A DNA stretch of 64,000 bases from Candidatus Doudnabacteria bacterium (GTDB lineage: Bacteria; Patescibacteriota; Doudnabacteria; UBA920): positions 793,078 through 857,077 of the forward strand of contig CAWINB010000004.1 in NCBI GenBank assembly GCA_963837465.1, read 5' to 3'. The notes below the pieces were generated by a model that was not told where the DNA came from, searched no databases, and saw nothing but the letters and a program-made list of their open reading frames with translations. The translations under genes were made by a program, and so were the position numbers. Positions 21,884 through 60,821 of this stretch are shown here, in pieces; position 1 is the first letter of the stretch; the number at the start of each line of letters is the position of its first letter.

Positions 21884-21922
21884 ATAAAATTAACAAATTT
21901 GTTAATTTAAAAATTTTACTTA

Positions 21923-22969
21923 ATGCCAAAAGTCACCGTCATCCAGGTTATTTATAACAACCGCCGGTTTATCGAGCCGGTATTTTCGGCTGTCTTTAAT
22001 CAAAGTTATAAAGATATTAACGTCGTGGCGGTTATCGCGGGAAACGATGACGGCGGCAAAGAATTATTGGCCGAAAAATTCCCCCAGGTGGAAATTATTG
22101 ACCCGGGCTTTAACATCGGCTTTTCCGCCGGGCATAATTTGGTTTTTGACAAATGCGGCAACCTCACCCCCTCCCTCTCCTCAAAAGGAGAGGGAGCGTC
22201 TGAATTTTTCCAGTTGGTCAACCCGGATATGGTTATGGACCCGACCTACATTGAAAATATTTTAAAAGCTTTTGACGACCCCAAAGTCGGCGCGGCAACG
22301 GGAAAGTTGTATCAGGTTGATCGCGATGCCATCGTAGACACAAGGGGAATCCTTTTGATGCAAAAGGATTCCCCTTGTGTCCTGGACACGACCGGAGTTG
22401 TGATTTCCAAATCCGGACGCGCGAGGGACCGGGGACAACATGAGGTTGATAACGGACAATATGACCGATTAACATCAGTTCAGGCTGTTTCCGCCGCCGG
22501 GGCAATGTATCGGAAGACGGCCTTGCAAGCTGTCAGCTGTCAGCTGTCAGCTGACAGATCTTCCCGCGAGTACTTTGATCAGGACTTTCACAGTTACTGG
22601 GAAGACGTAGATTTAACCTGGAGGATGTCCAACGCCGGCTGGAAAAATATTTTTGTCCCGTCCGCGGTTGCTTATCACGGCAGGGGAGCGGCGGCATCGG
22701 AAAACGGCTACGCCGATGTTCTAGGTTTCATCAGCCACCACAAAAAATTGTCTCCCCGCGTCCGGAAGCTAAACTACCAAAACCACATTTTTATGTACAT
22801 AAAAAACTCGCCCTATTTTTACCCCCATTTTTTTGTCCGGGAATTTTTTATGTTTTTTTATATCCTGTTTTTTGAAACCGGCACTTTAAAAGTTTTACCG
22901 CGAATGTTTAAATTATTGCCAAAGATGTGGATGAAAAGAAAATTAATTCAAAGTTCTGTGTCGCCCTGA
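21923..22969 (+). CDS. GT2 glycosyltransferase
   Basis: TVIQVIYNN...D.D GT-A signature; contains an in-frame hairpin insert at 22171-22196 and a heptamer SSR at 22528. Confidence 0.75.
   Translation: MPKVTVIQVIYNNRRFIEPVFSAVFNQSYKDINVVAVIAGNDDGGKELLAEKFPQVEIIDPGFNIGFSAGHNLVFDKCGNLTPSLSSKGEGASEFFQLVNPDMVMDPTYIENILKAFDDPKVGAATGKLYQVDRDAIVDTRGILLMQKDSPCVLDTTGVVISKSGRARDRGQHEVDNGQYDRLTSVQAVSAAGAMYRKTALQAVSCQLSADRSSREYFDQDFHSYWEDVDLTWRMSNAGWKNIFVPSAVAYHGRGAAASENGYADVLGFISHHKKLSPRVRKLNYQNHIFMYIKNSPYFYPHFFVREFFMFFYILFFETGTLKVLPRMFKLLPKMWMKRKLIQSSVSP
22528..22555. repeat. Heptanucleotide SSR AGCTGTC x3 + AGCTGAC inside the GT2 CDS
   Basis: Direct reading; the unit length is not a multiple of three. 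Confidence 0.8.
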
Positions 22970-23390: not shown

Positions 23391-24368
23391 ATGCCTTTAG
23401 TCAATAAGCAGATTGATTTATCAATCGTCATCCTCTCCTACAAATCCAAATCCCACCTGGAGGTTTTACTGCCGAGTGTTTTCGATAGTTTTGGGGTTGA
23501 TTTTTCAACTCCAAAACTATCGTCCGACGAAGCCTTGGCGAAGTCGGATGGGGATCGGGCGGCCAAGGCTCGCCCCTACACCGCCGAAATAATCATAGTA
23601 GACAACGACTCTCGCGACGGAACCGCGGAATGGATAAAAGCGGAATTCTGTGATTTTGACGGCCGTCAAAATCACAGAATGGTTTCCTTGATCGAGAATT
23701 CCAACAATGGTTTTTCCAAAGGAAATAATCTTGGAATAAAACAGGCCTCCGGCAAATATATTTTGCTGCTTAATCCCGACACCAGGCTTGAGCCCGGAAC
23801 TTTAAAAACTATGCTGGATTTTATGGACAGCCGGCCGGATGTCGGGATTTCCGGATGCAAACTTATTAAAGCCGACGGCAAGCTGGATGTAGCCTGCCGC
23901 AGAAGGTTTCCAAACCCATCCAATAGTTTTAAACGGCTGTTCCTGATGGACCGCATAGACTATAATTATTCCGATATCGATCAAGATAAGGAAATGGAAG
24001 TAGACAGCGTGGTCGGCGCGTTTATGCTTATCCGAAAATTAGCCCTGGATAAAACCGGCCTCTTGGACGAAATTTTTTTTATGTACGGTGAAGATTTGGA
24101 TTTGTGCTGGCGCTGCGAGGAAGCGGGGTTTAAAGTCTGGTATTATCCCAAAACTTTTATCCATCATTACAAAGGCGAGTCCAGCCGCAAAACGCCGTTT
24201 AAATCGTTAAAAGATTTCCATAACGCCATGTGGATTTTTTACAAAAAGCATTACGCTAAAAATTACTTCGTAATTTTTAATTGGCTGGTATGGTTGGGAA
24301 TTTATGCGCGGCTGGCCGTCTTGGTGATTATCAATAAATTCAAAGCCAATCCCAGTGTCAGCAAATAG
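23391..24368 (+). CDS. GT2 glycosyltransferase (rhamnosyltransferase-like) with in-frame palindromic inserts
   Basis: IVILSYKS...IIVDNDSRDGT...GFSKGNN GT2 motifs; extra segment DSFGVDFSTPKLSSDEALAKSDGDRAAKARP. Confidence 0.75.
   Translation: MPLVNKQIDLSIVILSYKSKSHLEVLLPSVFDSFGVDFSTPKLSSDEALAKSDGDRAAKARPYTAEIIIVDNDSRDGTAEWIKAEFCDFDGRQNHRMVSLIENSNNGFSKGNNLGIKQASGKYILLLNPDTRLEPGTLKTMLDFMDSRPDVGISGCKLIKADGKLDVACRRRFPNPSNSFKRLFLMDRIDYNYSDIDQDKEMEVDSVVGAFMLIRKLALDKTGLLDEIFFMYGEDLDLCWRCEEAGFKVWYYPKTFIHHYKGESSRKTPFKSLKDFHNAMWIFYKKHYAKNYFVIFNWLVWLGIYARLAVLVIINKFKANPSVSK
23645..23680. repeat. 36-bp perfect palindrome attctgtgattttgACGGCCGTcaaaatcacagaat, in frame within the GT2 CDS (P3 family)
   Basis: Direct reading; encodes EFCDFDGRQNHRM; related copies at 56846 and 60780 share the ACGGCCGT centre. 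Confidence 0.8.
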
Positions 24369-37673: not shown

Positions 37674-37680
37674 ATGCTCC

Positions 37681-38085
37681 GGGCAAACTCATAAGCCGAA
37701 TTCTGTTTCTCTCCGCCTTCGCGTAAAGCTATGCGGATCAGCGCCGTAAAATAAATTACAGTTGCTGAATAATCATCTATCTAGCCCCGCCATTGCTGGC
37801 GGGATCGAGCAGCCTACCTAATTTGGCCTTGCACTCAAGTAAGGATTTAGCCGTTTCACCCTTCGGCTTCGCTCAGAGCCTCGCGGCCCCGGGTTTATAT
37901 GAAGGTTGATCCAAATTTTGGATCCCCGCGCCTTTCGGCGGCAGGCGTCACTGTTCGCACCTCGCGGATTACTCCGGACGGGGATTACCCGCTACCAATT
38001 TTGATAACTCTTAAGAGGTTATCAAACAAGTGTTCGGACTTTCCTACCCTTAAAATAAATTAAGGATCGATTATTCGGTTTGCCC
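37681..38085 (-). ncRNA. rnpB: RNase P RNA (bacterial type A)
   Basis: Reverse complement contains GGAAAGTCCGAACAC, GGTAGGCTGCTCGA, CTAGATAGATGA and ACAGAATTCGGCTTAT; P1 pairing GGGCAAAC/GTTTGCCC; no ORFs on either strand. Confidence 0.85.
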
Positions 38086-38111
38086 AAAGCCCATAAATAT
38101 TAGCAAAAAAG

Positions 38112-38245: not shown

Positions 38246-39682
38246 ATGAAGAAAACAGAGCTGATTTTTAACATTATATCCGTTCCCGTGGACGTTATTT
38301 CGCTTTTTTTGGCCGGCGTAGCGTCTTTTTATTTAAGGGAGCATTCCGTAAGCCTGGTCGGACCTATAGTTTACCGGTTGCAGCTGAGGGAATTTTTAAG
38401 CGTGGTCTATAAAATTGTGCCCGTCCTTGTTCTTATTTTCGCTCTGCTCGGTTTGTATAATTTAAGGGGCACGCGCAAATTTATCCCCGAATTCGGCCGG
38501 ATAATCGTCGGCACTTCCATGGGCTTGCTTATTGTGATTTTACTGTTCTTTTTCAACCAAAGCATTTTTCCTTCACGCTTTATCATCCTTGCCACCTGGG
38601 GTTTTGGAATTCTGTTTGTGGTTTTAGGGCGTCTGGCCTTAAAACAGGCGCAGATATTTTTATTCCGCCAAAATCTTGGATTGCACAAACTGGTTATTAT
38701 TAACGGCAATCCGGGCAGTCTGGAATTAATAGAACAGATTTTCAAAAACAGCAAGCACGGCTATAAAGTCATTGCCGAGCTCGATTATTCGCCGGCTGTT
38801 TTTGGCGGGCTGGAAAAGCTGTATCAGGAAAAAAAAGTTGATGAAATCCTCCAGGCCAATCCCGCTTTAAGCGATGACGTGAATTTAAAACTGGTGCAGT
38901 TCGCCAGGGGTAAAGGCTTAAAGTTCAGTTTTGTGCCGAATCTTTTTGAAGTCCAGAGAAATATCGTGGAAACCGACAACTTAAACGGCATCCCGCTAAT
39001 CAGTCTTAAGAATACGCCCCTGGACGGCTGGGGCAAAGTGGCCAAAAGGATACTGGATGTCCTGGCCAGCCTGGCGTGCCTGATTTTAACCTCCCCGGTT
39101 TTTTTGCTGGTCTATGTGGCCATAAAGATTGACTCAAAGGGAAAAGCTATTTATTCCGCCGCGCGGGGCGGAAACGGCAGGGACTTTAAATTTTACAAGT
39201 TCAGGAGCATGTACAGCCACCTGAGCATAGGCGAAAAGTACGGCGGCCGCACGGCTGAACAGATGCGCAAAGACTTGTGGCAAAAAAATGACCGCGGCGG
39301 CGCGGAAGCGCCGTTTTTAAAAATAAAAGACGACCCGCGCGTTACCAAAGTCGGGCGTTTTTTACGCCGGACCAAACTTGATGAAATACCGCAGTTCTGG
39401 AACGTGCTTAAGGGCGACATGAGCATGGTCGGACCGCGAGCCCATGTTTTGGACGAAGTCAAAAAGTACCGCGACAGATACCCGCGCATGTTCAGCATAA
39501 AGCCGGGCATAACCGGCCTTTCGCAAATATCCCAGTTTTCCTGGGCCGATTTGCCGTTCGAGGAAGAAATCCGCCTGAATACTTATTACATAGAAAACTG
39601 GTCTCTGTGGCTGGACGTAAAAATTCTCGCCCAAACTTTCTGGCTGCTGTTTTTTGATGTTGAGCCAAAGGATAATTATTAA
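38246..39682 (+). CDS. Polyprenyl-phosphate hexose-1-phosphate transferase (WbaP/CpsE-like priming glycosyltransferase)
   Basis: C-terminal bacterial sugar-transferase domain RILDVLASL...KFRSM...DEIPQFWNVLKGDMSMVGPR. Confidence 0.85.
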   Translation: MKKTELIFNIISVPVDVISLFLAGVASFYLREHSVSLVGPIVYRLQLREFLSVVYKIVPVLVLIFALLGLYNLRGTRKFIPEFGRIIVGTSMGLLIVILLFFFNQSIFPSRFIILATWGFGILFVVLGRLALKQAQIFLFRQNLGLHKLVIINGNPGSLELIEQIFKNSKHGYKVIAELDYSPAVFGGLEKLYQEKKVDEILQANPALSDDVNLKLVQFARGKGLKFSFVPNLFEVQRNIVETDNLNGIPLISLKNTPLDGWGKVAKRILDVLASLACLILTSPVFLLVYVAIKIDSKGKAIYSAARGGNGRDFKFYKFRSMYSHLSIGEKYGGRTAEQMRKDLWQKNDRGGAEAPFLKIKDDPRVTKVGRFLRRTKLDEIPQFWNVLKGDMSMVGPRAHVLDEVKKYRDRYPRMFSIKPGITGLSQISQFSWADLPFEEEIRLNTYYIENWSLWLDVKILAQTFWLLFFDVEPKDNY

Positions 39683-39684
39683 GC

Positions 39685-40854
39685 ATGATGACAAATTTCC
39701 AATTTCCAGTTTCCAATTTCAAAATCGCTTTGGCCCACGATTCGTTTACCCAGGACGGGGGAGCGGAAAGAGTGATGGAGGGTTTGCATGAGCTGTTTCC
39801 CCAAGCCCCTGTTTTTACTTTGGTGTTTGACCCAAAATTCAGGGAAAAATACAAAGATTGGGACATCCGCACTTCCAAATTGCAGACTTTATACCTGTCT
39901 TTGGGCAAGCTCCAGTACCTTTTGCCGCTTATTCCGTACGGAGTGGATTCCCTGGATTTTTCCGGTTTTGACGTTATAATTTCTTCCAGCTCCGGGTTCA
40001 TTAAAAATTTACGCCGTCCGAAAAACGCCTTGCATATAAATTACTGCCATACCCCGGCCCGGTTTTTGTGGAGCGATGCCAATTACGTAAACGAAGAAGT
40101 CAATCCGGTCTTTAGACCCGCGGCAAAATTTATACTAAACCGGATAAAGCTTTGGGATTTAAAGGGGGCAAAGCGGGTGGATTATTTTATCGCTAATTCA
40201 CACGAAGTCCAAAACAGGATTTCGCGATATTATCAGCGTACTAGTACGCTGATACATCCGTTTGTCGATATGGATTTTTGGAAAAACGTTCAAACCAGGC
40301 AAAATTATTTTTTGCTCGCCGGCAGGCTTCAGGCGCATAAAAATAATGAACTGATTATCCAGATTTTTAATGAACTTGACCTGCCGCTGCGTGTGGCGGG
40401 TACGGGGCGGCAGGAAAATTATTTAAAATCCATCGCCAAACCGAATATTAAGTTCTTAGGGCGCGTCAGCGACGAACAACTGCGGCAGGAATACAGCGGA
40501 GCTCTCGGCTTTATTTACCCCCAACTGGAAGATTTCGGCCTAATGCCCCTGGAAGCCGCCGCCTGCGGCACGGCCACCCTGGCTTACGGCAAAGGCGGAG
40601 CTTTGGAAACGGTGACTTCTGGGGTTACAGGAGAGTTTTTTGGTCCCGACGCAGTTAGCCCATTTATGGGCTGTGGAACTGAACAAACAGCCGATAAATT
40701 GGCTAACTACAAGGACCAAATCAAACAGCTCATCCTAAACTGGCAACCGCAAAAATATAAACCCGACCAACTGCAATCCCAGGCCGAAAAATTCAGCAAG
40801 GAAAAATTTAAGGAAAATATTTTAGAATTTATTAATTCATTAAAAATGAAATGA
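39685..40854 (+). CDS. GT4 glycosyltransferase (carries several dispersed repeat motifs in frame)
   Basis: GT-B fold; EDFGLMPLEAAACG motif; heptamer run at its 5' end, the 22-bp palindrome at 40232 and the P4-variant at 40688. Confidence 0.8.
   Translation: MMTNFQFPVSNFKIALAHDSFTQDGGAERVMEGLHELFPQAPVFTLVFDPKFREKYKDWDIRTSKLQTLYLSLGKLQYLLPLIPYGVDSLDFSGFDVIISSSSGFIKNLRRPKNALHINYCHTPARFLWSDANYVNEEVNPVFRPAAKFILNRIKLWDLKGAKRVDYFIANSHEVQNRISRYYQRTSTLIHPFVDMDFWKNVQTRQNYFLLAGRLQAHKNNELIIQIFNELDLPLRVAGTGRQENYLKSIAKPNIKFLGRVSDEQLRQEYSGALGFIYPQLEDFGLMPLEAAACGTATLAYGKGGALETVTSGVTGEFFGPDAVSPFMGCGTEQTADKLANYKDQIKQLILNWQPQKYKPDQLQSQAEKFSKEKFKENILEFINSLKMK
40232..40253. repeat. 22-bp perfect palindrome ATCAGCGTACTAGTACGCTGAT inside the GT4 CDS (P5 family)
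   Basis: Direct reading; encodes YQRTSTLIH; core shared with 49711..49728 and 49604..49629. Confidence 0.8.
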
Positions 40855-41246
40855 AAAATTGTATATTCTGTCAAATCGTGGCGGGAAAATCGCCAAATTA
40901 TAAGTTATATGAAGACAAAGATTTTTTGGCATTTTTGGACATTAATCCTATGAACTTTGGGCATTTTTTAATCATATCAAAGAAGCATTACAACTATATT
41001 TTTGATTTACCGGAACCCTTGTATTCTAAAATTTTTAAATTAACAAAAAAATTATCCAAGCCCTTAAAACTCGCAACCAAAGCAAAGCGGATTGGAATAG
41101 CTATTGAAGGGCTTGCAGTGCCTCATTTGCATATACATATGGTACCTTTGAACAATTTGTCAGATCTTGATCCAAATCGGGCAAAAAGAGCATTGGATAA
41201 AGAATTGAAGCGAACCCATAAAATGCTAAAAAAATATTTTAAATGA
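40851..41246 (+). CDS. HIT-family (histidine triad) nucleotide hydrolase/transferase
   Basis: HLHIHMVP histidine triad. Confidence 0.8.
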   Translation: MKNCIFCQIVAGKSPNYKLYEDKDFLAFLDINPMNFGHFLIISKKHYNYIFDLPEPLYSKIFKLTKKLSKPLKLATKAKRIGIAIEGLAVPHLHIHMVPLNNLSDLDPNRAKRALDKELKRTHKMLKKYFK

Positions 41247-42361
41247 AAATCGCCGTTGATTTAAGGAGTCTTTCCAGCGGGCAGTTTACCGGGGTGGAAA
41301 ATTACGCGCTTAATTTATTGGACGCGCTTTTGGCTTTGGACAAAAAAAACAGTTATATTTTATTTTACAATTCTTTGGGCAACGGCAAGACTTTGGATTT
41401 GAACTTTATAAATTCCACAACCAAGCTGACCCGCTATCCCAACCGCCTGTTGAATTTGGCTTTAATGGCCAGGGCCACCACCCTGGAAAAAGTCATCGGC
41501 GATTTTGACTGCCTGTTTATGCCCAATTTAAACCAGTTTAACATAGCTCCTTCGGCCAGGCTGGCGCTGACCGTGCACGACTTGTCGCCGGTGGTCACGC
41601 CGGAATTTTACGATGTTAAAAGAAGGATGTGGCACAAATTTTTAAATTACAAACGGGCCTTTGGGCGGGCCAATGTAATTTTTGCCGTGTCAGAATACAC
41701 CAAAAACGATCTTATCCGGATTTTTGGCATCAGTCCGGAAAAAATTAAAGTCGCTTACCCGGGAATTAACAACAACGACTTCCGTCCGGATATTGGCATC
41801 TCCCGCCTCCGCCAGGTCCGTAACATTTACGGCTTGCCGGGAGAATTTATTTTATTTTTAAACACCATTGAACCCAGAAAAAACCTGGCGGGACTGCTAA
41901 GCGCCTTTGAGCGTACCGCCGGAGAATCCAGCTTGGTGATTATGGGCCGCCGGGGCTGGAAATACAAAGCTGTCATGCAAAGCATCAAAAACAGCAAAAA
42001 ATCTGCTAAAATAAAGTACATAGGATACGCCGACGAAAAAGACAAGCCGGCTATTATTAAGCTGGCCAAAATGCTGGTCTACCCCAGTTTTTACGAAGGT
42101 TTTGGCTTTGGGCCGCTGGAAGCTATGGCTGTGGGCACGCCGGTTATTGTAAGCCAGGTTACGGCGTTGCCCGAGGTTTCCGGGGACGCGGCCCTGCTTG
42201 TAAACCCCTATGATACCGGCAGTATTACAACAGCTGTTGAGGCGCTGCTGAAGGACGAAAACTTAAGGCGGCGGCTGGTCGCCAAAGGTCTGGAAAAAGT
42301 AAAGCAATACAGCTGGCAAAAAACGGCGCGGGAAGTTTTAAGCGGATTAAATAGTATATAG
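41243..42361 (+). CDS. GT4 glycosyltransferase
   Basis: GT-B fold; [14 protein letters not shown] motif. Confidence 0.8.
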
Positions 42362-42400
42362 AACCTATTTTAAAAATTAGGGGACAAATTTGTGGAAACG

Positions 42401-42489
42401 GATAAACACGGATTTAAAACAGGTGAACACGGATTACTGCATTCTGTACGTGTTAATCTGTTTGCCCGCTCCGTGTTCATCCGTGTTAT
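42401..42489. promoter_or_regulatory. Nested inverted repeats of AACACGGAT (two direct copies, then two inverted copies)
   Basis: ataaacacggat...gaacacggat...ccgtgttc atccgtgttat. Confidence 0.45.
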
Positions 42490-42546
42490 GTTATATATAA
42501 ACTGTCGGAATATATTTAAAACGAGTTCTTAATTTTATTTAATTCA

Positions 42547-43671
42547 ATGATTATCGGAATTGACGCCCGGATGCTGGGCAGGAGGCACGGAGGAATAGGC
42601 AGATATGTTTTGGAATTATCCAAAAGTCTTTTGGAAATTGACCGCGTCAATCATTACGATATTTTTGTAAACTTAAAGACATCAGATGCGGCCGATGTTG
42701 ACCAATTAAGGAAGTTTGAAAACGCCACCGTTGTTCCGGCCAACATCCGCCATTATTCCCTGGGCGAACAGCTGAGTTTTGCCCGCTTGCTTAATAAGTA
42801 TCCGCTGGACATTGTCCATTTTCCCAATTTTAACGTGGCCCTAAATTACCAAAAGCCGTTCGTGGTTACCATTCACGATATGGTGCACCATAAAATAGGC
42901 GGCGCCAAAAAAAGCCACTTCCCGCATTTTTTGGCTTACAAAAAAGTTATTGAAAGCGCGGCGGAAAAATCAAAAAAAATTATTACCGTATCCCAGGCCG
43001 CGAAAAAAGATATTGCTTCGTTTTTGCGAATCCCGCCGAATAAAATCGCCGTGACTTATGAAGGTTCAAAGCTGAATACCAAAGTTAGTTCGGAACAGGT
43101 AGCGGAAATAAAAAAAAGGTACTTTTTGGACAAACCTTATTTTTTGTTTGTGGGAGTTTTGGAACGTAAAAAAAATCTGGTCAACCTGACCCGCGGTTTT
43201 GACCAATTTTTTCAAAAGTACAACATCGACATGGATTTAGTCGTAGTCGGTAAAACCGATCCACACTATCCGGAAATTAAGCATGAGGCTTTGGATATAA
43301 AACACAACGACCGTCTTGTCTTTACCGGGCAGGTGGAAGATTCCGAGCTGACCGCGCTTTACAAAGGCGCTTACGCTTTTGCCTCGGCTTCGGTCCACGA
43401 GGGTTTTGGCCTGCCGGGAGTGGAAGCTTTGGGTTTTGGCCTGCCGCTGTTAGCCAGCAACAGCGATGTCTTTAATGAAATTTACGACAACGCGGCCGTT
43501 TATTTTAACCCTTTTGATCCGGAAGACATAGCTGAAAAAATGCACCTGCTGGCCCAGGACAAGCAGTTTTATCAACAGTTGCGGGGAAAAAGCCTGCAAA
43601 GGAGCCTGCTGTTTGACTGGCGTAAGACCGCGGAAGAGACGTTGGAGGTGTATAGGATTTGCGTCTTTTAA
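42547..43671 (+). CDS. GT4 glycosyltransferase
   Basis: GT-B fold; EGFGLPGVEALGFG motif. Confidence 0.8.
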   Translation: MIIGIDARMLGRRHGGIGRYVLELSKSLLEIDRVNHYDIFVNLKTSDAADVDQLRKFENATVVPANIRHYSLGEQLSFARLLNKYPLDIVHFPNFNVALNYQKPFVVTIHDMVHHKIGGAKKSHFPHFLAYKKVIESAAEKSKKIITVSQAAKKDIASFLRIPPNKIAVTYEGSKLNTKVSSEQVAEIKKRYFLDKPYFLFVGVLERKKNLVNLTRGFDQFFQKYNIDMDLVVVGKTDPHYPEIKHEALDIKHNDRLVFTGQVEDSELTALYKGAYAFASASVHEGFGLPGVEALGFGLPLLASNSDVFNEIYDNAAVYFNPFDPEDIAEKMHLLAQDKQFYQQLRGKSLQRSLLFDWRKTAEETLEVYRICVF

Positions 43672-43765
43672 GTTTCGTAATATTTCCACATATTCGAGAA
43701 TATAGATGGAAAAATATTGAAATTGAAATAGTAGAAATAGGGTTGAAATAAATGGAAATATTGTT

Positions 43766-44860
43766 ATGAAAATTTTACTGGTCGGCGGCGGCAGCGGCGG
43801 CCCTGTGTCGCCCCTGCTGGCGGTCGCCGAAGAGATAAAAAAAAATCATCCCTCGGCCAAATTCTTACTGGTCGGCACGAACAGCGGGCCGGAAAAACAT
43901 ATGGCGCGAGCCGCGGGCCTGGATTTTACCGCTATTTCGGCGGCTAAGTTGCGGCGGTATTTTTCCTGGCGGAATTTTTTGGCGCCGTTTTTGCTGGCGG
44001 CCGGTTTTTTTCAGAGCTTAAAACTGCTGGCATCCTTCCGCCCCGATTGCGTGCTCGGGGCCGGAAGTTTCGCGCAGGTGCCGCTGGTCTGGGCGGCTTG
44101 GATTCTGAAAATTCCCGTGGTTTTGCACCAGCAGGATTTACTGCCGGGTCTGGCCAACAAACTTTGCGAGTTGGCCGCCTCAACCATCACCGTAAGTTTT
44201 GAAGCTTCTTTAAAAAGCTTTCCCAGCAACTTTGGATTTTTTTACAAAAATACCAGACGTGATAAAATTATCCTGACAGGCAATCCATTCAGACAGGAAC
44301 TTAAATCGGCCGACAAGCAGGAATCTTTAAAGTTTTTTAACCTAAGGCCGGATATGCCCACACTCCTGGTTTTGGGCGGCGGCACCGGAGCGGAATTTTT
44401 GAACGACTTGGTATGTGAAAGCTTGGCGCGGCTGGCCAAAACGGTGCAAATTATCCATTCGGCCGGCCCGGGCAAGCTTAAAGCAGTCCGGGCGGAAAAC
44501 TACCGCGGCTACGAGTTTATAGATAATATGGCCGCGGCTTACGCCGCGGCCGACCTGGTGGTGTGCCGGGGCGGCCTGTCCACCATTACCGAATTGTCAA
44601 ATTTAAAAAAATTAAGTATAATTATTCCTTTGCCCCGTAGTCCGCAGGAAATTAACGCCATGTTTCTGGCGCGGGCCAACGCGGCCATAATTTTAAGCCA
44701 AAACGAAGTCACGTCTATTGGCCTCATAAACCTGGTCCGCAAACTCCTGTTCGCCCACGATCTGCGGCAGCAGCTGAAAAATAATATTTTTAACATTATG
44801 CCAAAAAACGCCGGGGAAAAAATTGCCGAAGTTGTTTTAAGGCTGGCGCTCCATTACTAA
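43766..44860 (+). CDS. murG: MurG-like GT28 (lipid I to lipid II N-acetylglucosaminyltransferase)
   Basis: MKILLVGGGSGG N-terminus and two-domain GT28 architecture; sits next to murC and murB. Confidence 0.7.
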   Translation: MKILLVGGGSGGPVSPLLAVAEEIKKNHPSAKFLLVGTNSGPEKHMARAAGLDFTAISAAKLRRYFSWRNFLAPFLLAAGFFQSLKLLASFRPDCVLGAGSFAQVPLVWAAWILKIPVVLHQQDLLPGLANKLCELAASTITVSFEASLKSFPSNFGFFYKNTRRDKIILTGNPFRQELKSADKQESLKFFNLRPDMPTLLVLGGGTGAEFLNDLVCESLARLAKTVQIIHSAGPGKLKAVRAENYRGYEFIDNMAAAYAAADLVVCRGGLSTITELSNLKKLSIIIPLPRSPQEINAMFLARANAAIILSQNEVTSIGLINLVRKLLFAHDLRQQLKNNIFNIMPKNAGEKIAEVVLRLALHY

Positions 44861-44958
44861 TTTATATTTAAAAGGCAGTCTCCAAGAGTCGTATTGTTCT
44901 TATTTTTTAACCTATCCGCCAAAAAGTAAATTAAAGACGCGGCTTCCGGAAACCCATT

Positions 44959-45906
44959 ATGCTTAACTCGGCAAAACCCAAAGTCGGACTGGCTCTAAGC
45001 GGCAGCGGCGACCGCACGACTTTTTATATCGGCTTTCTGGAAAGCCTGAGCCGGCAAAATGTCCCCATAGATTATATTTCCGCCTGCTCCGGAGGGTCGC
45101 TGGTGGCCGCGGCTTACGCCTGCGGCGCCTTGGAAGAGTTTAAAAAAGAAGCCCTGTCCCTGAACGGCGAAGGCCTTAAACATTACATCGCCAAAAGCAG
45201 GGGCCGCGGAGGTTTTTATTCACTGGATGTGATGGAGGAAAAATTGCGCGGATTTACAAAAGGCAAAACTTTTGAGGAAGTCAGGCCGCTGATGTCGTTT
45301 GTCACAGTGGACATAGAAACAGGCGAGCAAATTAACCTTTGCATAGGCGATATCGCGCGCGCCGCCAGGGTTTCCTGCACCTTGCCCGGGGTTTTTGAGC
45401 CGGTGAAATGGGGCAACCGGACTCTGGTGGACGGCGGCCTGTTAAGCCAAATCCCGCTGGATTCCTTAAAACAGTTTCCGGTTGACGTAACAGTTGGGGT
45501 TAATATGCGCGGCACCAAACATATTTTTACCCAGGGGCAAATCAGCTTAAAAAAACTCCTCAACCTTTTGGGCAAGCTGCTGTTTGTCAGCGAGCTCGGC
45601 AGTTTGGTCAGAGGTTTTTGGGATGAAGACGAAGACGGGGATATTGATTTTGAGCGCAACCCCAGCACGTTTACGGTTTTAAGCAAGAGCCTGAATCTGG
45701 CCATTGCCGCCGAGAAAACGGGCTCGGAGCCGGATATATCCTGCGACCTGATGATAGTTCCCTCCATGCCGCCGGTTAAACGCGACATTACCGAGCAATT
45801 TACATTTTATTACGAAATGGGAAAAAAGTGCGCCGAAGAGTTTGGGCCAAAAATTTTACAACTTGTGGAACAGAAGCAAAAAATTATGGACGCGGTAAAA
45901 TCATGA
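44959..45906 (+). CDS. Patatin-like phospholipase
   Basis: GLALSGSGDR, CSGGS (GxSxG) and DGG motifs. Confidence 0.75.
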   Translation: MLNSAKPKVGLALSGSGDRTTFYIGFLESLSRQNVPIDYISACSGGSLVAAAYACGALEEFKKEALSLNGEGLKHYIAKSRGRGGFYSLDVMEEKLRGFTKGKTFEEVRPLMSFVTVDIETGEQINLCIGDIARAARVSCTLPGVFEPVKWGNRTLVDGGLLSQIPLDSLKQFPVDVTVGVNMRGTKHIFTQGQISLKKLLNLLGKLLFVSELGSLVRGFWDEDEDGDIDFERNPSTFTVLSKSLNLAIAAEKTGSEPDISCDLMIVPSMPPVKRDITEQFTFYYEMGKKCAEEFGPKILQLVEQKQKIMDAVKS

Positions 45907-47408
45907 ACCTGGATGATATAAAAAAAATATATTTTGTGGGTATTGGCGGCATAGCCATGTCCGCGGCCGCTGGTATTGCCGGACAGCGGGGGTTTGAGGT
46001 AACCGGCAGCGACGCGGCAGGAATTTATCCGCCGGCCAAAGATGCGCTGGATGCTTTGGATATCCCTTACTTTACCGGCTACAGCCCGGAGCACCCAAAG
46101 CGGGCGGGCGCCGATTTGTTTATTTTATCCGCGGGGGAAGGGCCGGAAAATCCCGAAGTCGGATATATTTTGGAAAACGGCCTTCCGCGCTCGGGCTTTC
46201 CGGAACTGCTTTATGAGCTGGCCAAAGACCGTCTGCGTCTGGTCGTGGCCGGCACGCACGGTAAATCCACCACAACCGGCCTTTTGGGGCACCTGTTAAA
46301 AAATCTGGACGACAGTTCTTTTTTGGCCGGCGGGGTCCTGCAAAACTACGACAGTAATTTTTATCTGGGCGACGGCAATTATTTTGTGTTTGAGGGCGAT
46401 GAGTACAAATCGGAGTTTGACGACCCGACGCCAAAGTTTCAATACTACAGGGCCGATATTTCGGTTTTGACCAACCTGGAATACGATCATCCCGATATGT
46501 TTGAAAATTTCGAGGTCCTGCGGCAGGAATTCCGTTTGCTGGTTGAAAAAATGCCGGAAGACGGGCTGGTTGTTTACAACGCGGATGACGCGGCCCTGAC
46601 CCAGCTTGTCCATGAATCCAATGTCAGCAGCGTCAGTTTTGGCATAGACAATCCCGCGGATTTTAAGGCGGAAGACATAAATTACTCCTCTGATTTTACG
46701 ACAATTGAAATAATAAACAAATTTTCCAAAGCCATTTCCAGTAAACTGCTCGGGCAAACCGAACAATACAAAATCCAGCTGCCGGGGAAAATCAATGTTT
46801 ATAATTCTTTGGCGGCCATTGCCACGCTAAGGTCTTTGGGTTTTGCGCGGGAGCAAATTGCCCTGGACCTTTTAACTTATAGGGGAATAAAAAGGCGTTT
46901 TGAAGTCGTGGGGGTAAAAAATGGCATTACCATCATCGACGATTACGCGCACCATCCCACCGCGGTAAAAGAAACCCTGGAAGCGGCCCGTCTCCGGTAT
47001 TTCCCTCAAACATCAGGCATCAAACATCAGACATCAAAATTATGGGCTATTTTTGAACCCCATACCTTTAGCCGCACCAAAGCCACATTGGATGACCTTG
47101 CGAAAAGTTTTGACGCGGCCGATGAGGTTTTGATATCGGAAATTTACCCGGCCAGGGAAAAAGCATCAGCCGGTACTGTAACATCTTCGCAAGTTGTCAA
47201 TGCTGTAACGCGCTCTGTAGGGGCTGCGCTCGCGCGCCCGCTCCCCGATGACGGGCGGCCAAGGCCAGCCCCCGCAATACGTTTGGTTTCGGATAAAACC
47301 CAAGCCCTAACCATCCTGAAATCCGAAGCCAAACCCGGCGACGTAATCATCATAATGGCCGTAGGCAGCTTTAACCGACTGGCTTATGAGTTGAAAGAAA
47401 TATTATAA
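45903..47408 (+). CDS. murC: UDP-N-acetylmuramate--L-alanine ligase; start at the ATGA overlap with the previous gene
   Basis: KIYFVGIGGIAMS...GTHGKSTTTGLL Mur-ligase motifs; in-frame tandem repeat insert at 47007-47039. Confidence 0.8.
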   Translation: MNLDDIKKIYFVGIGGIAMSAAAGIAGQRGFEVTGSDAAGIYPPAKDALDALDIPYFTGYSPEHPKRAGADLFILSAGEGPENPEVGYILENGLPRSGFPELLYELAKDRLRLVVAGTHGKSTTTGLLGHLLKNLDDSSFLAGGVLQNYDSNFYLGDGNYFVFEGDEYKSEFDDPTPKFQYYRADISVLTNLEYDHPDMFENFEVLRQEFRLLVEKMPEDGLVVYNADDAALTQLVHESNVSSVSFGIDNPADFKAEDINYSSDFTTIEIINKFSKAISSKLLGQTEQYKIQLPGKINVYNSLAAIATLRSLGFAREQIALDLLTYRGIKRRFEVVGVKNGITIIDDYAHHPTAVKETLEAARLRYFPQTSGIKHQTSKLWAIFEPHTFSRTKATLDDLAKSFDAADEVLISEIYPAREKASAGTVTSSQVVNAVTRSVGAALARPLPDDGRPRPAPAIRLVSDKTQALTILKSEAKPGDVIIIMAVGSFNRLAYELKEIL

Positions 47409-47410
47409 AG

Positions 47411-47665
47411 ATGGAAATCGAAAAAGAAATTCAGGAAATTAAATCGCGAAACCGAAAAGTGGAAGCCGACAAAGCCTGGGAAAGAAGCTGGTCAAGAAGA
47501 CTGTTTATAGTCATCGCGACCTACATAGTGGCTGCTTTTTGGCTGGTGGTTATAAAAGATACGCAGCCTTTCTTAAAAGCCTTAATCCCGGCTGTCGGCT
47601 ATTTGCTTTCGACTTTATCAATACCCTGGGTAAAAAGAATATGGTTAAAGAATCACCCCCGATGA
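47411..47665 (+). CDS. Small two-TM protein, hypothetical
   Basis: 84 aa; stop overlaps the murB start (ATGA). Confidence 0.4.
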   Translation: MEIEKEIQEIKSRNRKVEADKAWERSWSRRLFIVIATYIVAAFWLVVIKDTQPFLKALIPAVGYLLSTLSIPWVKRIWLKNHPR

Positions 47666-48717
47666 AAATCCAGGAAAATATTTTATTGGCTCCATACACC
47701 ACTTTTAAAATCGGCGGGCCGGCGAGGTTTTTTTGCTTCGTGGAAAATCAGTTTGACGCTTTGGCAGGCTATGAGTTTGCCAAAAAAAATAATTTAAAAG
47801 TTTTTGTTTTGGGCGGCGGCAGCAATATTTTGGTTAGTGACAAAGGCTTTAACGGGCTGGTGGTTAAAGTCCAAAATAAAGGGATTGAGGTTATTAATAA
47901 AAACAATGACGATGTTTTGCTTAGGGTCGCGTCCGGCGAGGTTTGGGACGAAGTCGTAAGTTTTGCCGTAAAAAATAGCTGGTGGGGGATTGAAAATTTA
48001 TCGCGCATTCCGGGCTCCAGCGGCGCCATTGCCGTGCAGAATGTTGGGGCTTACGGCCAGGAGGCCAAAAATATTATAAGTTCCGTAACGGTTTTCGACA
48101 CTCAAACGCATCAGATTTCAAATTTAAGCAACGGCGATTGCGGGTTCGGTTACAGGAAAAGCATTTTTAATTCAGAGCAAAAAGGCGAATATGTTATTTT
48201 TTCCATAGATTTTATTTTGTCAAAAATTGCCGGGCCGAACTTAAGCTATGGGGATTTGCGTATTAAATTCGGGGATGCCAGTCCATCTTTGGCTGAAATC
48301 CGAAATGCCGTAATAGGAATAAGGGATAAAAAATTTCCTTTTCCCAGGGAAGCCGTAAAGGGAAACGCGGGATCGTTTTTTAAAAATCCCGTACTGAGCC
48401 CGGAGGGTTATAAAAACCTGCGGGTAAAAATAGCCGCGGAGTTCGGCAAAGCGGCGGCTGGTAATTTGGGGAAAAAGATATTTACGGACGATAACTTAAC
48501 CAAGGTTCCGGCGGCGTTTTTAATTGAACTTTGCGGCTTAAAAAATTTGCAAAGCGGCGGCGCGGGTCTTAATCAAAACCAGCCTTTGGTGATTATTAAC
48601 CAAACAGGAACCGCCACAGCTGAAGATATTATGAATTTAGCCAACCAAGTCAGGAGCGCGGTCCTGGAAAAGACGGGGATCAGCCTTGTTTTTGAGCCGG
48701 AGTTGATTGGGTTTTAA
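47662..48717 (+). CDS. murB: UDP-N-acetylenolpyruvoylglucosamine reductase
   Basis: APYTTFKIGGPARFF...VLGGGSNIL FAD-binding motifs. Confidence 0.85.
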   Translation: MKIQENILLAPYTTFKIGGPARFFCFVENQFDALAGYEFAKKNNLKVFVLGGGSNILVSDKGFNGLVVKVQNKGIEVINKNNDDVLLRVASGEVWDEVVSFAVKNSWWGIENLSRIPGSSGAIAVQNVGAYGQEAKNIISSVTVFDTQTHQISNLSNGDCGFGYRKSIFNSEQKGEYVIFSIDFILSKIAGPNLSYGDLRIKFGDASPSLAEIRNAVIGIRDKKFPFPREAVKGNAGSFFKNPVLSPEGYKNLRVKIAAEFGKAAAGNLGKKIFTDDNLTKVPAAFLIELCGLKNLQSGGAGLNQNQPLVIINQTGTATAEDIMNLANQVRSAVLEKTGISLVFEPELIGF

Positions 48718-48803
48718 GGAAGTATGCTATAATGATTTTGTAAAAAATTAATTTTTAACAGCAAGCTGAACAGCAAAATGCGCGTTATTCGCCCGTTACG
48801 ATT

Positions 48804-49133
48804 ATGAATATCACAATAAAAGCCACCAACACAACTTTAACCCCGGCCATTAAAAGTTTTATAGAAGATAAGCTGGATTCGCTTGCCAAATTCATTAAGC
48901 CGGAAGACAAAGTCAGGGTGCAGATAGAAGCCGACAAAAGGCGCGCCGGCGAATTCGCTTTCCGCGCCGAAATAGACATCCAGCCCCACGGCCATTTTGC
49001 GGATGCCCGCGGTATTGATATTTACGCGGCGTTTGATCTGGTCGTCCCTAAGATTAAGGAGCAGCTGACCAGAAAAAAGGATAAAAAATTAAGCCTGCGC
49101 AGGGCCAAGCTTTCCGTAAAAAATTTAAAATAA
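48804..49133 (+). CDS. hpf: Ribosome hibernation promoting factor (short HPF/RaiA)
   Basis: [24 protein letters not shown]... Confidence 0.8.
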
Positions 49134-49138
49134 AAAAT

Positions 49139-49166
49139 CCCCCGGCCAAACCGGGGTATTTTTTTG
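49139..49166 (+). terminator. Rho-independent terminator
   Basis: atcccccggccaaaccggggtattttttt. Confidence 0.7.
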
Positions 49167-49211
49167 CCATCTCAGAGATGCCAATATCAATCGAGCTGTG
49201 TTTTTGGTGTG

Positions 49212-49265
49212 TCATCCCGGAATTTTTCGCGACAAGCCTATTGAAAGGAAAAATGTCCGGGATCC
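49212..49265. repeat. P2 hairpin element copy (CATCCCGGAATTTTT...AAAATGTCCGGGATCC)
   Basis: Matches 54535..54581 and the arms of 9362..9489. Confidence 0.55.
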
Positions 49266-49308
49266 AGAATCAAGCATGACCTTGATAAATCAGGACGGAA
49301 ACAACCCA

Positions 49309-49584
49309 TTACTTCTCCAGCATCTGCCTGAAACCGCCCTTTTTATTCATCAGTTCCCGCGAGCCGCGTGTTACAGTAGCCACGCTAACCTTAAGATTTT
49401 TGGCGATGTCCCTTTGGGGAACCTTTTGTTCCAGCTGTTTTACAATCTGCCAGCGCACAGCCAGGTCTTTATACTCGGCGGGGGACAGTAAATCGTACAA
49501 AAGCTCGTGCAACAAGGCTTTGCTTTTAGCCGCCTTAAACAACAAATTTTCCATCTCTACCCCGAATTTATAATCGTATTTCAT
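49309..49584 (-). CDS. TrpR-like YerC/YecD-family DNA-binding protein
   Basis: LLSPAEYKDLAVRWQIVKQL...RDIAKNLKVSVATVTRGSREL. Confidence 0.6.
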   Translation of the reverse strand: MKYDYKFGVEMENLLFKAAKSKALLHELLYDLLSPAEYKDLAVRWQIVKQLEQKVPQRDIAKNLKVSVATVTRGSRELMNKKGGFRQMLEK

Positions 49585-49603
49585 GGTATTTTCCTGTTCG
49601 TAA

Positions 49604-49629
49604 ATGTTACTGTACTAGTACAGTAACAT
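49604..49629. promoter_or_regulatory. 26-bp perfect palindrome ATGTTACTGTACTAGTACAGTAACAT, 20 nt upstream of the TrpR-like gene (candidate operator)
   Basis: Direct reading. Confidence 0.5.
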
Positions 49630-49710
49630 GGCCGCCGGAGACGGTCAACAGGCTTTTTATATGTGGATAACTTTGGCTTAGGTTCGATATTTTTTCAAAT
49701 TCGCGTGTTC

Positions 49711-49728
49711 TAGCGTACTAGTACGCTA
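49711..49728. promoter_or_regulatory. 18-bp perfect palindrome TAGCGTACTAGTACGCTA (same GTACTAGTAC core)
   Basis: Direct reading; immediately followed by TTGACG...TAGTAT promoter-like boxes. Confidence 0.45.
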
Positions 49729-50225
49729 TTGACGGCGGATTTTCCTTGATGTAGTATTAGCTTATGATTTTTCAAAAATCCCGACAATCTCAACTATCCT
49801 GGCGGCAGGTTTTGTAACCGCAAAGCCTGGGTTTTGATACACCTTCAAACACCTCCCGGCCTTTTGCGGAAGGTGTTTTTTATTTGTTCTGATGATTGTT
49901 CAGTATAAAAAAGTGTGGCCGCATTTTTTATCCATACGATCACCAGCACAAATCCAAACCAGGATAACAAGGGTGCTGTCTTGCCTGGAAATAAAAGAGG
50001 ATGGAATGCAGTTTTATTTTAGGTGTCGTTTTAGCCACAGGTCTGTCTCGAGAGGGGCATTGGCCAAAATTCTGCACTCTTCCCTGAAGAGTGTCACTTT
50101 GGAGATATTCCAAAGTGGCACGAGTAGCGAAAGAGCTACTCAAATTCAACGTTATGAAATGGAGGAGTTTCTTTATTGTTATTATCGCGCCAATGAGCGC
50201 GATCGGGATGTTAAGAATATACCTT

Positions 50226-50270
50226 CCGCCGTCCTGCGTAATTAGCAGGCTCCGGCGGTTCCATTTTTTT
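50226..50270 (+). terminator. Hairpin plus T-run terminator inside the gene-poor region
   Basis: ccgccgtcctgcgtaattagcaggctccggcgg ttccattttttt. Confidence 0.5.
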
Positions 50271-56845: not shown

Positions 56846-56883
56846 TATTACGCAATTCTGACGGCCGTCAAAATCGTGTAATA
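56846..56883. terminator. Hairpin with an ACGGCCGT centre (P3 family, deletion-variant of 23645..23680)
   Basis: tattacgcaattctgACGGCCGTcaaaatcgtgtaata. Confidence 0.5.
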
Positions 56884-60066: not shown

Positions 60067-60780
60067 CGATCAACAATTGACCTTCGGCCTTTTCCAGCGG
60101 CATAAAAGCTTAAGCTATGGGATTTCGGAAAAATCCGACGGCTCTATGAAGCTGCAGGGTTCGGATGTTATGGCTGCAAAAAATCGGAGTAAGTTTTTTA
60201 AGTCCCATGACATCCGTACCGGACAAAATATCACGCCGCTGCAAAGCCATTCCGCCACTATCGCCAAAATTACCTCTGATGATAATCATCAGCCAAGCGC
60301 CGATGGCTTAATTACGGACGTTCCGGACATAAGCCTAACCGTAACCGTTGCCGACTGCTTTCCGGTTTATTTTTACAATCCTAAAACTTCTGCCATTGGG
60401 CTGGCTCATTGCGGCTGGCGGGGGATTGTCGCCGGTCTTCCATCCAAGATGGCGGGGCGATGATCTCGGCGCTAAATTGTCCCGCCGATGATATCCTCGC
60501 AGGCATTGGCCCTGGCATAAGAGCTTGCCACTTTGAAATCAAGCCCGATGTTTTGGAAGAGTTTAACGATTACCCGCTCCATATTAATTTTGTCGGCCAG
60601 AAAATTTTTGTTGACTTGCCCGCAATCATCACATCCCAACTAACAGCCGCGGGAGTTCTCAAACAGAACATCGCCGATTCCGGCCACTGTACCTACTGCC
60701 AAAAAGACAAATACTTTTCCTTCCGCCGCGACCATCCAAAAAAAGTCCGAGCCATGGTTGCTTATATTGGTTTAATTTAA
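60029..60780 (+). CDS. pgeF: PgeF/YfiH (DUF152) purine nucleoside phosphorylase / peptidoglycan editing factor, frameshift at the G4 run 60454-60457
   Basis: VADCFPVYF...GLAHCGWRG and C.YC...YFSFRRD motifs; adding one G restores ...KMAGAMISALNC... Confidence 0.7.
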
Positions 60781-60821
60781 GCTGTTACTATAACGCACGG
60801 CCGTGCGTTATAGTAACAGCT
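60780..60821. repeat. 42-bp perfect palindrome agctgttactataacgcACGGCCGTgcgttatagtaacagct (P3 family)
   Basis: Direct reading, immediately after the pgeF stop. Confidence 0.8.

Follow-up and report, generated by a model that had tools for sequence, protein, structure and literature searches.

The locus and its palindromes

A stretch of 64,000 nucleotides (nt) from a Candidatus Doudnabacteria bacterium (contig CAWINB010000004.1), called the window in the following and numbered from its first base, carries a gene for a 91-amino-acid (aa) protein of the Trp_repressor family, here named the trpR-like gene, and three exact copies of the 10-mer GTACTAGTAC, starting at positions 40238, 49612, and 49715. 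Two of these sites, O1 and O2, are located upstream of the trpR-like gene, and the third, O3, inside a gene for a GT4 glycosyltransferase (Table 1). Each copy is the center of a perfect palindrome. The comparison of related loci, the covariation of protein and DNA, and the identity with a half-site of the Escherichia coli trp operator argue that the adjacent TrpR-like regulator uses these palindromes as its operators, as a first-pass annotation of this DNA had proposed.

The two upstream palindromes were found as annotated: the 26-bp palindrome of O1 is ATGTTACTGTACTAGTACAGTAACAT and ends 19 nt before the ATG (position 49584) of the minus-strand open reading frame (ORF), and the 18-bp palindrome of O2, TAGCGTACTAGTACGCTA, follows 81 nt past it. 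The palindrome in the GT4 gene had been given as 22 bp; it is present and extends by one further base on each side, yielding 24 bp (TATCAGCGTACTAGTACGCTGATA). O2 also contains repeats at 8-bp steps, with CTAG at 49710, CTAG at 49718, and CTAT at 49726.

These sites are not expected by chance. No GTACTAGTAC occurred in 100 dinucleotide-preserving shuffles of the window, which is 0 expected versus 3 observed copies, and a search of the whole window with up to two mismatches to GTACTAGTAC yielded no further convincing copy. The hexamer ACTAGT occurs only four times in the 64 kb, three times at the palindromes. The longest palindrome per shuffle in 50 shuffles was usually 14 to 18 bp and once 22 bp, shorter than the 24 to 26 bp observed.

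Table 1. Positions of the sites, genes, and transcript features in the window
Feature	Position	Strand	Description
Operator O1	49604-49629		26-bp perfect palindrome, core 49612-49621; overlaps the −10 and likely start of the putative trpR promoter
Operator O2	49710-49729		18-bp perfect palindrome 49711-49728, core 49715-49724; abuts the divergent −35
Operator O3	40231-40254		24-bp perfect palindrome, core 40238-40247; in the GT4 ORF; encodes Y-Q-R-T-S-T-L-I
trpR-like gene	49309-49584	−	91 aa; Trp_repressor family, Pfam PF01371
trpR promoter, putative	49620-49648	−	−35 TTGACC 49648-49643, 17-nt spacer, −10 TACTGT 49625-49620
TTATCCACA box	49662-49670	−	DnaA-box consensus; between O1 and O2, some 13 nt 5′ of the trpR −35
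Divergent promoter	49729-49757	+	TTGACG-N17-TAGTAT, from consensus scan
Leader mini-ORF	49764-49817	+	MIFQKSRQSQLSWRQVL-stop; 6 nt after the −10, near-leaderless; Trp codon 49800-49802
Attenuator RNA, predicted	49790-49884	+	Hairpin 1 49790-49837 (core 49806-49829); terminator 49847-49878 plus U-run to 49884
Two-stem RNA motif	49943-50005	+	CCAGCAC..CCAGG..CAAG-GGTGCTG-CTTG-CCTGG, A-rich stretch, GAGG, ATG
Orphan ORF	50006-50245	+	79 aa; downstream of leader and two-stem RNA motif
GT4 gene	39685-40854	+	Carries O3; Pfam Glycos_transf_1, Glyco_transf_4

The TrpR-type regulator

The 91-aa protein matched the Pfam family PF01371 with an E value of 5.8e-20 and 71.6 bits (cutoff, 27), covering 76 of the 88 profile positions. 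In comparison with the NCBIfam models, it reached 58 bits with TIGR01321 (TrpR) versus 22.1 bits with TIGR02531 (YerC/YecD), the cutoff of the latter being 42.2. Of the designation "TrpR/YerC-like," the assignment to the Trp_repressor family therefore stands, and the protein is nearer to true TrpR than to YerC/YecD. It shares the small size and the Pfam family with YerC/YecD of Firmicutes and Enterobacteria but differs by these scores and by the linkage to trp genes in its relatives; we know of no operator or regulon assigned to YerC/YecD. All 157 database homologues of the protein contained PF01371 and came from Patescibacteria, also known as the candidate phyla radiation (CPR), with Doudnabacteria as the nearest named group.

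An alignment placed the recognition helix VATVTRGSREL of the 91-aa protein opposite IATITRGSNSL of the E. coli TrpR structure sequences. Residues T44, R54, R69, T81, R84, and G85 of E. coli TrpR correspond to S34, R44, R58, T70, R73, and G74. Across 42 CPR homologues, R44, R58, T70, and R73 were invariant, and G74 was conserved in at least 90%. In E. coli TrpR, the tryptophan is held between R54 and R84, and the DNA contacts involve R69 and T81. The Pfam family, the recognition helix, and the counterparts of the arginine residues are thus shared with E. coli TrpR, but the N-terminal arm of the latter is missing.

Association of the motif with trpR-like genes

The sites were compared with 80 trpR-like loci from Genome Taxonomy Database (GTDB) species representatives of many Patescibacteria classes. 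The source genome of the window is not among these representatives, and the flanks of the 80 related loci were used for the background frequency of the core. In 55 of the 80 loci, the trpR-like gene had an exact core no more than 200 bp away. The 31.5 kb next to the gene contained 74 sites and the 1.108 Mb of the flanks 18 sites, an enrichment of about 145-fold. The symmetric consensus across the loci was approximately TGTwwYArY-GTACTAGTAC, and the 24-bp form TATCAnnGTACTAGTACnnTGATA was present in many of them. The invariant part is the 10-bp center; the arms vary, and their pairing is not required. In the syntenic relative L002, with 76% protein identity, two exact cores 93 bp apart are located upstream of the trpR-like gene, with their arms altered symmetrically to TTAATGTACTAGTACATTAA. 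Many relatives have the proximal site between −25 and −45 relative to the trpR start. Center-to-center spacings between the two sites in relatives ranged from 72 to 108 bp and were free of a clean helical phasing that would indicate looping between O1 and O2.

The core changes together with the recognition helix. Two classes of helices exist at the position of E. coli T81, [AS]T and [SA]K. A CTAG-type core was located nearby in 55 of the 62 loci with an [AS]T helix and in none of the nine loci with an [SA]K helix. Four of these nine loci (L030, L033, L037, and L041) carried GTACCAGTAC/GTACTGGTAC at the operator position instead, and GTACCAGTAC occurred only twice elsewhere in 1.07 Mb. The change from Thr to Lys in the helix, paired with that from CTAG to CCAG in the core, is a candidate specificity switch, and this covariation is the strongest computational argument that the 91-aa protein reads GTACTAGTAC DNA.

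The core also resembles the known target of E. coli TrpR. The natural E. coli trp operator is CGAACTAGTTAACTAGTACGCAAG (PMC11748629), and both O2 and O3 include its right half, ACTAGTACGC. The operator core ACTAGTAC(GC) of the window equals this right half. As in E. coli, the promoter of the regulator gene itself carries a site, and the sites are positioned over the −10 and start (trpR) or at a −35. A DAHP synthase gene is located downstream in some of the relatives, similar to aroH, which is a TrpR target in E. coli.

A wider search in the JGI metagenome collection identified the 16-mer AGCGTACTAGTACGCT in 101 stretches. It adjoined a trpR homologue in 22 of them, some being of higher GC content and apparently outside of the CPR, with trpR followed by trpE. 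One match was located beside trpE on a contig without trpR, one was inside an orthologue of the GT4 gene (L174), and most of the remaining matches were intergenic. That the motif is read by another protein, such as another transcription factor or a restriction-modification system with ACTAGT or GTAC as its target, and is close to trpR by coincidence, would agree with several metagenome matches that adjoin TetR, MerR, or GntR genes, and ACTAGT and GTAC are common restriction sites. The co-occurrence with trpR across many Patescibacteria classes and in some non-CPR trpR-trpE operons, the covariation of helix and core, and the match to the E. coli half-site leave this explanation with next to no probability.

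Three other observations came from the metagenome contigs. In seven related contigs (L088, L091, L093, L120, L128, L156, and L164), AGCGTACTAGTACGCT was located 10 nt before an ORF of the Peptidase_M24 family (methionine aminopeptidase), which may be a further member of the regulon. Contig L114 contained eight GTACTAGTAC cores within 1.1 kb, and L147 contained three copies of AGCGTACTAGTACGCT about 400 bp apart, each in a perfect palindrome of 26 to 32 bp.

Promoters at O1 and O2

The two upstream sites had been annotated as an autoregulatory operator pair. This fits O1, which covers the −10 and likely start of the putative trpR promoter; this TTGAAA/TTGACC-N17-TAnTGT layout is also present in L004 and L005, which argues for autoregulation. 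O2 belongs to the opposite transcript instead: its 18-bp palindrome stops one base short of the TTGACG-N17-TAGTAT promoter that reads into the tryptophan leader on the plus strand. A distal site immediately 5′ of TTGACA is conserved in relatives, and an arrangement like that of O2 with a divergent promoter was present in L004, L005, L011, L012, L015, L018, L019, L023, and L024. In the Parcubacteria loci, the −10 directly abuts the core.

A further element accompanies these promoters. The TTATCCACA box between O1 and O2 is the single exact copy in the window. In 35 of the 80 loci, an exact copy was no farther than 300 bp from the trpR-like gene, with 24 copies elsewhere in about 1.1 Mb. When one-base variants within 400 bp of the gene were included, together with the window, 46 of 51 boxes had the same orientation. 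Boxes with a core downstream were positioned 35 to 58 nt upstream of this core, with modes at 45 and 55 to 56 nt, which places the box at about −47/−57 of the TrpR-controlled promoter.

The tryptophan leader and its predicted attenuator

The transcript starting next to O2 encodes a mini-ORF with a Trp codon; in the leaders of relatives, this position is taken by two Trp codons in a row (for example, SWWKVL, VWWQAL, and KSWWGAK). A WW mini-ORF was found within 230 nt of the site in 30 of 81 loci. The minimum free energy fold of the following region, which contains hairpin 1 and an intrinsic terminator, had a z value of −2.45, and the loop of the terminator repeats the GGCTTTGC-like sequence that forms the 5′ arm of hairpin 1. 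Masking of the Trp codons plus 13 nt in silico, which mimics a stalled ribosome, caused CCGCAAAG to pair with CUUUUGCGG in the window, and the terminator was lost. Of 14 relatives, 8 shared with the window this flip of the predicted fold and the loss of the terminator; in the other relatives, the terminator persisted. This prediction supports in silico a classical trpL-type logic of ribosome-mediated attenuation for the window leader.

Similar to the E. coli trp leader, a short ORF with Trp codons (in tandem in the relatives) precedes an intrinsic terminator and hairpins that are predicted to be alternatives; the terminator repeats the sequence of region 1, so that region 2 could pair with either. 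The window differs from E. coli by a near-leaderless ORF with one Trp codon and by an orphan ORF that replaces the trp genes. Moreover, repressor and attenuator would be joined here on a transcript divergent from trpR.

Tryptophan genes in relatives and the orphan ORF in the window

The Parcubacteria-type loci follow the order trpS, trpR, promoter with the −10 abutting the core, WW leader, terminator, and trp genes. Among the upstream ORFs, 22 of 41 were class I W/Y synthetases, and the example scored passed TIGR00233 (trpS). Downstream ORFs included anthranilate synthase I (five cases), PALP/TrpB (five), GATase (three), TrpD (three), IGPS (two), and PRPP synthetase (four), which correspond to trpE, trpG, trpD, trpC, trpB, and prs. 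In Doudnabacteria-type relatives, a SerK/SbnI-like protein plus TrpB2, or DAHP synthase, followed the leader. In three of these loci (L011, L012, and L014), the WW leader precedes the small SerK/SbnI-like (O-phosphoserine-forming) protein, and TrpB2 follows directly. This gene order suggests a salvage route from indole and phosphoserine to tryptophan under the control of TrpR and the attenuator.

In the window, the leader is followed by the two-stem RNA motif and the 79-aa orphan ORF. A search of 5.8 billion proteins with the 79-aa ORF matched only the ORF itself, and the ORFs after the leader had no match to the Pfam and NCBIfam families and did not resemble the small ORFs at related loci. 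Because only a structured motif of the 5′ untranslated region and this orphan ORF are located downstream, the TrpR/leader module of the window looks like a relic or a reused Trp sensor.

The two-stem motif has the general layout CCAGCRCAAA, N, S2a, GYGCTGG, S2b, an A-rich stretch, GGAG, and ATG. About 20 copies were found, every one of them on the divergent side of a trpR-like gene, mostly some 200 nt beyond a TrpR site and just 5′ of small orphan ORFs. The carriers are the window, L004, L005, L007, L010, L012, L013, L014, L015, L018, L019, L021, L023, L024, L147, L171, and L183. An R/Y pair in stem 1 covaries, and the arms of stem 2 vary between the copies with their complementarity being kept. 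Hardly any linker separates the two stems, which may be alternative folds. A search of the leader and intergenic RNA against Rfam identified no family, with hits at E values up to 1 to 10 being noise; the only Rfam match, RNase P RNA, was elsewhere in the window.

The intragenic site O3

O3 resides in the second gene of a co-directional cluster of envelope genes (38246-48717) that contains genes for a sugar transferase, GT4, HIT, GT4, GT4, MurG, patatin, MurC, and MurB and displays synteny with L002. The peptide RTSTLIH encoded at the site had been suspected to be an insertion, for which an alignment of orthologues was proposed as a check. In this alignment, 15 GT4 orthologues were free of gaps across the site, and the suspicion was dropped. 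An in-frame palindromic insertion element (RPE-like) was likewise rejected: no extra residues are present, and R-T-S-T replaces R-D/E/N-S-E/T, with R-[D/E/N]-S-[E/T] being the ancestral-looking residues.

This result also bears on the explanation that the palindromes are mobile or inserted elements or hairpins of RNA or DNA, such as terminators or processing sites, and independent of the regulator. Other long perfect palindromes exist in the window, one of them in a GT2 gene, and half of the metagenome copies of AGCGTACTAGTACGCT are perfect palindromes of at least 20 bp, some even of 44 to 60 bp, far more than predicted from chance extension. On the other hand, O3 came without an insertion or deletion, the 10-bp center is invariant while the arms are free to vary, O1 and O2 are positioned upstream of or at transcription starts, and the core is enriched beside trpR and shifts with the recognition helix. 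An origin of this kind is therefore very improbable.

The residues [R/C]-T-S-T, encoded by (C/T)GN ACT AGT ACN, were present in 6 of the 15 orthologues, the window, L025, L007, L012, L024, and L014, with one mismatch to the core in the site of L014. The metagenome copy L174 is an extra, independent bearer. The Thr and Ser codons were ACT and AGT in all six bearers, and other 4- or 6-fold degenerate codons of this stretch varied. The residue before ACT was either Arg or Cys, and five of the six bearers preserved GT at the last two positions of its codon. Among the nine non-bearers, the Ser was encoded by AGT, TCT, TCA, TCG, or AGC, and one of them had TGT for Cys instead. The ACT-AGT codons are thus fixed in the bearers and scrambled in the non-bearers, which points to selection on the DNA level, and we infer that O3 has been kept for binding of the repressor. 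The window, L025, and L174 even contain the full 24-bp consensus TATCAnnGTACTAGTACnnTGATA that is also seen in intergenic operators. In a neighbor-joining tree, the bearers were spread over several deep branches of a single clade and had non-bearers between them, a pattern compatible with an old gain followed by repeated loss or with several gains.

Since the DNA motif was kept on the codon level in several deep lineages, the link between the regulator and the glycan cluster that the first-pass annotation had considered is favored. Intragenic operators that act as roadblocks are known from the E. coli PurR site in purB and from CodY and CcpA sites within genes of Bacillus subtilis. O3 agrees with these examples as a full-strength operator hundreds of base pairs inside a coding region, conserved on the DNA level and with no promoter nearby, and differs by its target, which is a gene cluster for envelope glycan and peptidoglycan instead of the pathway of the regulator itself. 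Most simply, O3 would probably act as an elongation roadblock. We know of no previous demonstration that a TrpR-family protein blocks RNA polymerase in this way. E. coli TrpR bound to its operator has served as a protein obstacle for the MCM helicase on DNA (PMC11748629).

Proposed regulation and its weighing

It is quite probable that the GTACTAGTAC palindromes O1, O2, and O3 are the operators of the adjacent TrpR-type repressor. The 91-aa protein would dimerize, with L-tryptophan or a close indole compound as the probable co-repressor, and its recognition helix would read the central ACTAGT. Occupation of O1 would cover the −10 and the start, resulting in negative autoregulation of trpR, and occupation of O2 at the divergent −35 would repress the Trp-leader transcript, so that tryptophan would gate the downstream expression twice, by the repressor and by charged tRNA-Trp. 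Active repressor on O3 would form an elongation roadblock and decrease the expression of the distal part of the GT4 gene and of the downstream envelope genes.

Several findings weigh against this model. The −10 of trpR is weak, and its promoter was below the threshold of the consensus scan and was read from the sequence. About three-quarters of the metagenome matches to AGCGTACTAGTACGCT had no trpR on the same contig, these contigs being often short. The dyad of the sites is also unlike the E. coli operator, in which the axis is located between two CTAGs 8 bp apart; here, it passes through one central CTAG with extended arms, as in TATCAnnGTACTAGTACnnTGATA or CTAG-N4-CTAG-N4-CTAG, with O2 sharing the 8-bp CTAG register of E. 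coli. Tandem TrpR dimers have reportedly been crystallized on a synthetic DNA of this single-CTAG-dyad type (Lawson and Carey, 1993; PDB 1TRR). By analogy, two overlapping dimers per site are a reasonable model; alternatively, one dimer may bind per site in a different register.

A second group of these findings concerns O3. The site is missing in 9 of the 15 orthologues, including the closest syntenic relative (L002/L004), and no promoter was evident near it, with the one weak antisense match being at chance expectation. O1 and O2 may thus be TrpR operators and O3 a tolerated, non-regulatory by-product, for instance of a preference for R-T-S-T in the protein or of a short templated or gene-conversion copy of the operator. 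L024 and L023 differ at six of the nine bases of the three codons, with near identity of 11 flanking codons (TAT CAG to GGT), which resembles an abrupt event more than steady selection. In contrast, a by-product would not be expected to keep ACT and AGT identical in six lineages with other 4- and 6-fold degenerate sites scrambled, to preserve the GT in five of six bearers when the preceding residue switches between Arg and Cys, or to display in the window, L025, and L174 the full consensus shared with intergenic operators. A non-regulatory O3 is unlikely on balance, with a probability that is minor but appreciable.

The remaining findings concern the ligand. The window leader contains one Trp codon compared to two in the relatives. 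The 91-aa protein missed the equivalog cutoff of TIGR01321 (67.25 bits) and is, according to its sequence, a divergent TrpR-type protein and not a certified TrpR equivalog. Different from the vicinity of trpR in relatives, no trp genes were seen nearby: a tblastn search of the window for TrpB2, SerK-like protein, DAHP synthase, TrpE, TrpS, and TrpB was negative. Moreover, TrpB2 with at least 68% identity was not recorded on the source contig among the best 120 matches, which is suggestive only. Finally, the counterpart of E. coli S88 is Glu in the protein, as in at least 90% of the 42 CPR homologues. All this would agree with a regulator that binds its sites with another or no ligand, the Trp elements being relics. 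On the other side, no variation is seen in the counterparts of R54 and R84, which sandwich the Trp, the homologue of relatives is located between trpS and a Trp-attenuated trp operon, and the attenuator of the window retains its alternative fold, so that a loss of Trp sensing is rather improbable.

The repressor model may be extended by one tentative step, which we regard as unlikely as it stands. The bacterium, with a reduced genome of the symbiont type, has apparently lost its own genes for Trp synthesis and salvage and may have reused the module as a sensor of external tryptophan with two outputs, a throttle at O3 and a gate at O2 and the attenuator. The O3 roadblock would then throttle the 10-kb envelope cluster with its glycan transferases, MurG, MurC, and MurB, and O2 plus the attenuator would gate small orphan ORFs behind the previously undescribed two-stem RNA motif, which may be a new ligand-responsive element. 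A roadblock at O3 would tie the host amino acid supply to envelope synthesis in an obligate symbiont; a physiological coupling of tryptophan to envelope synthesis is speculative.

Patescibacteria are ultra-small bacteria that cannot be grown alone, and their transcriptional regulation is, to our knowledge, hardly described. A literature search retrieved no prior description of the motif in connection with TrpR or of TrpR in Patescibacteria; its only yield was the sequence of the E. coli operator. A TrpR with autoregulation and a Trp attenuator is a well-known type of system, newly documented here for this group, and the pairing of repressor and attenuator appears to be widespread and old in it. 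With a 10-bp core in a consensus of about 24 bp, the operator is sharply defined and could be used to scan thousands of CPR genomes for the Trp regulon. The Thr-to-Lys change paired with CTAG to CCAG is a testable determinant of specificity, and the site in the GT4 gene would be a clean natural case of an operator accommodated by a coding sequence.

Other features of the window

A second family of perfect palindromes shares the core ACGGCCGT. A 36-bp copy (23645-23680) is located in the GT2 ORF 23391-24368 and encodes EFCDFDGRQNHR, a 12-bp copy is at 56859-56870, and a 42-bp copy (60780-60821) begins at the stop codon of the ORF 60409-60780. Similar palindromes were found near the trpR loci in L007 and L028. 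Another 22-bp perfect palindrome, AAATTAACAAATTTGTTAATTT at 21887-21908, is situated in the 39-nt gap between the ORFs 20237-21883 and 21923-22969 and may be another operator. The RNase P RNA (bacterial class A, 37676-38086, minus strand) scored 101.7 bits compared to a gathering threshold of 100 bits in Rfam, and this score, barely above the threshold, fits a divergent CPR lineage.

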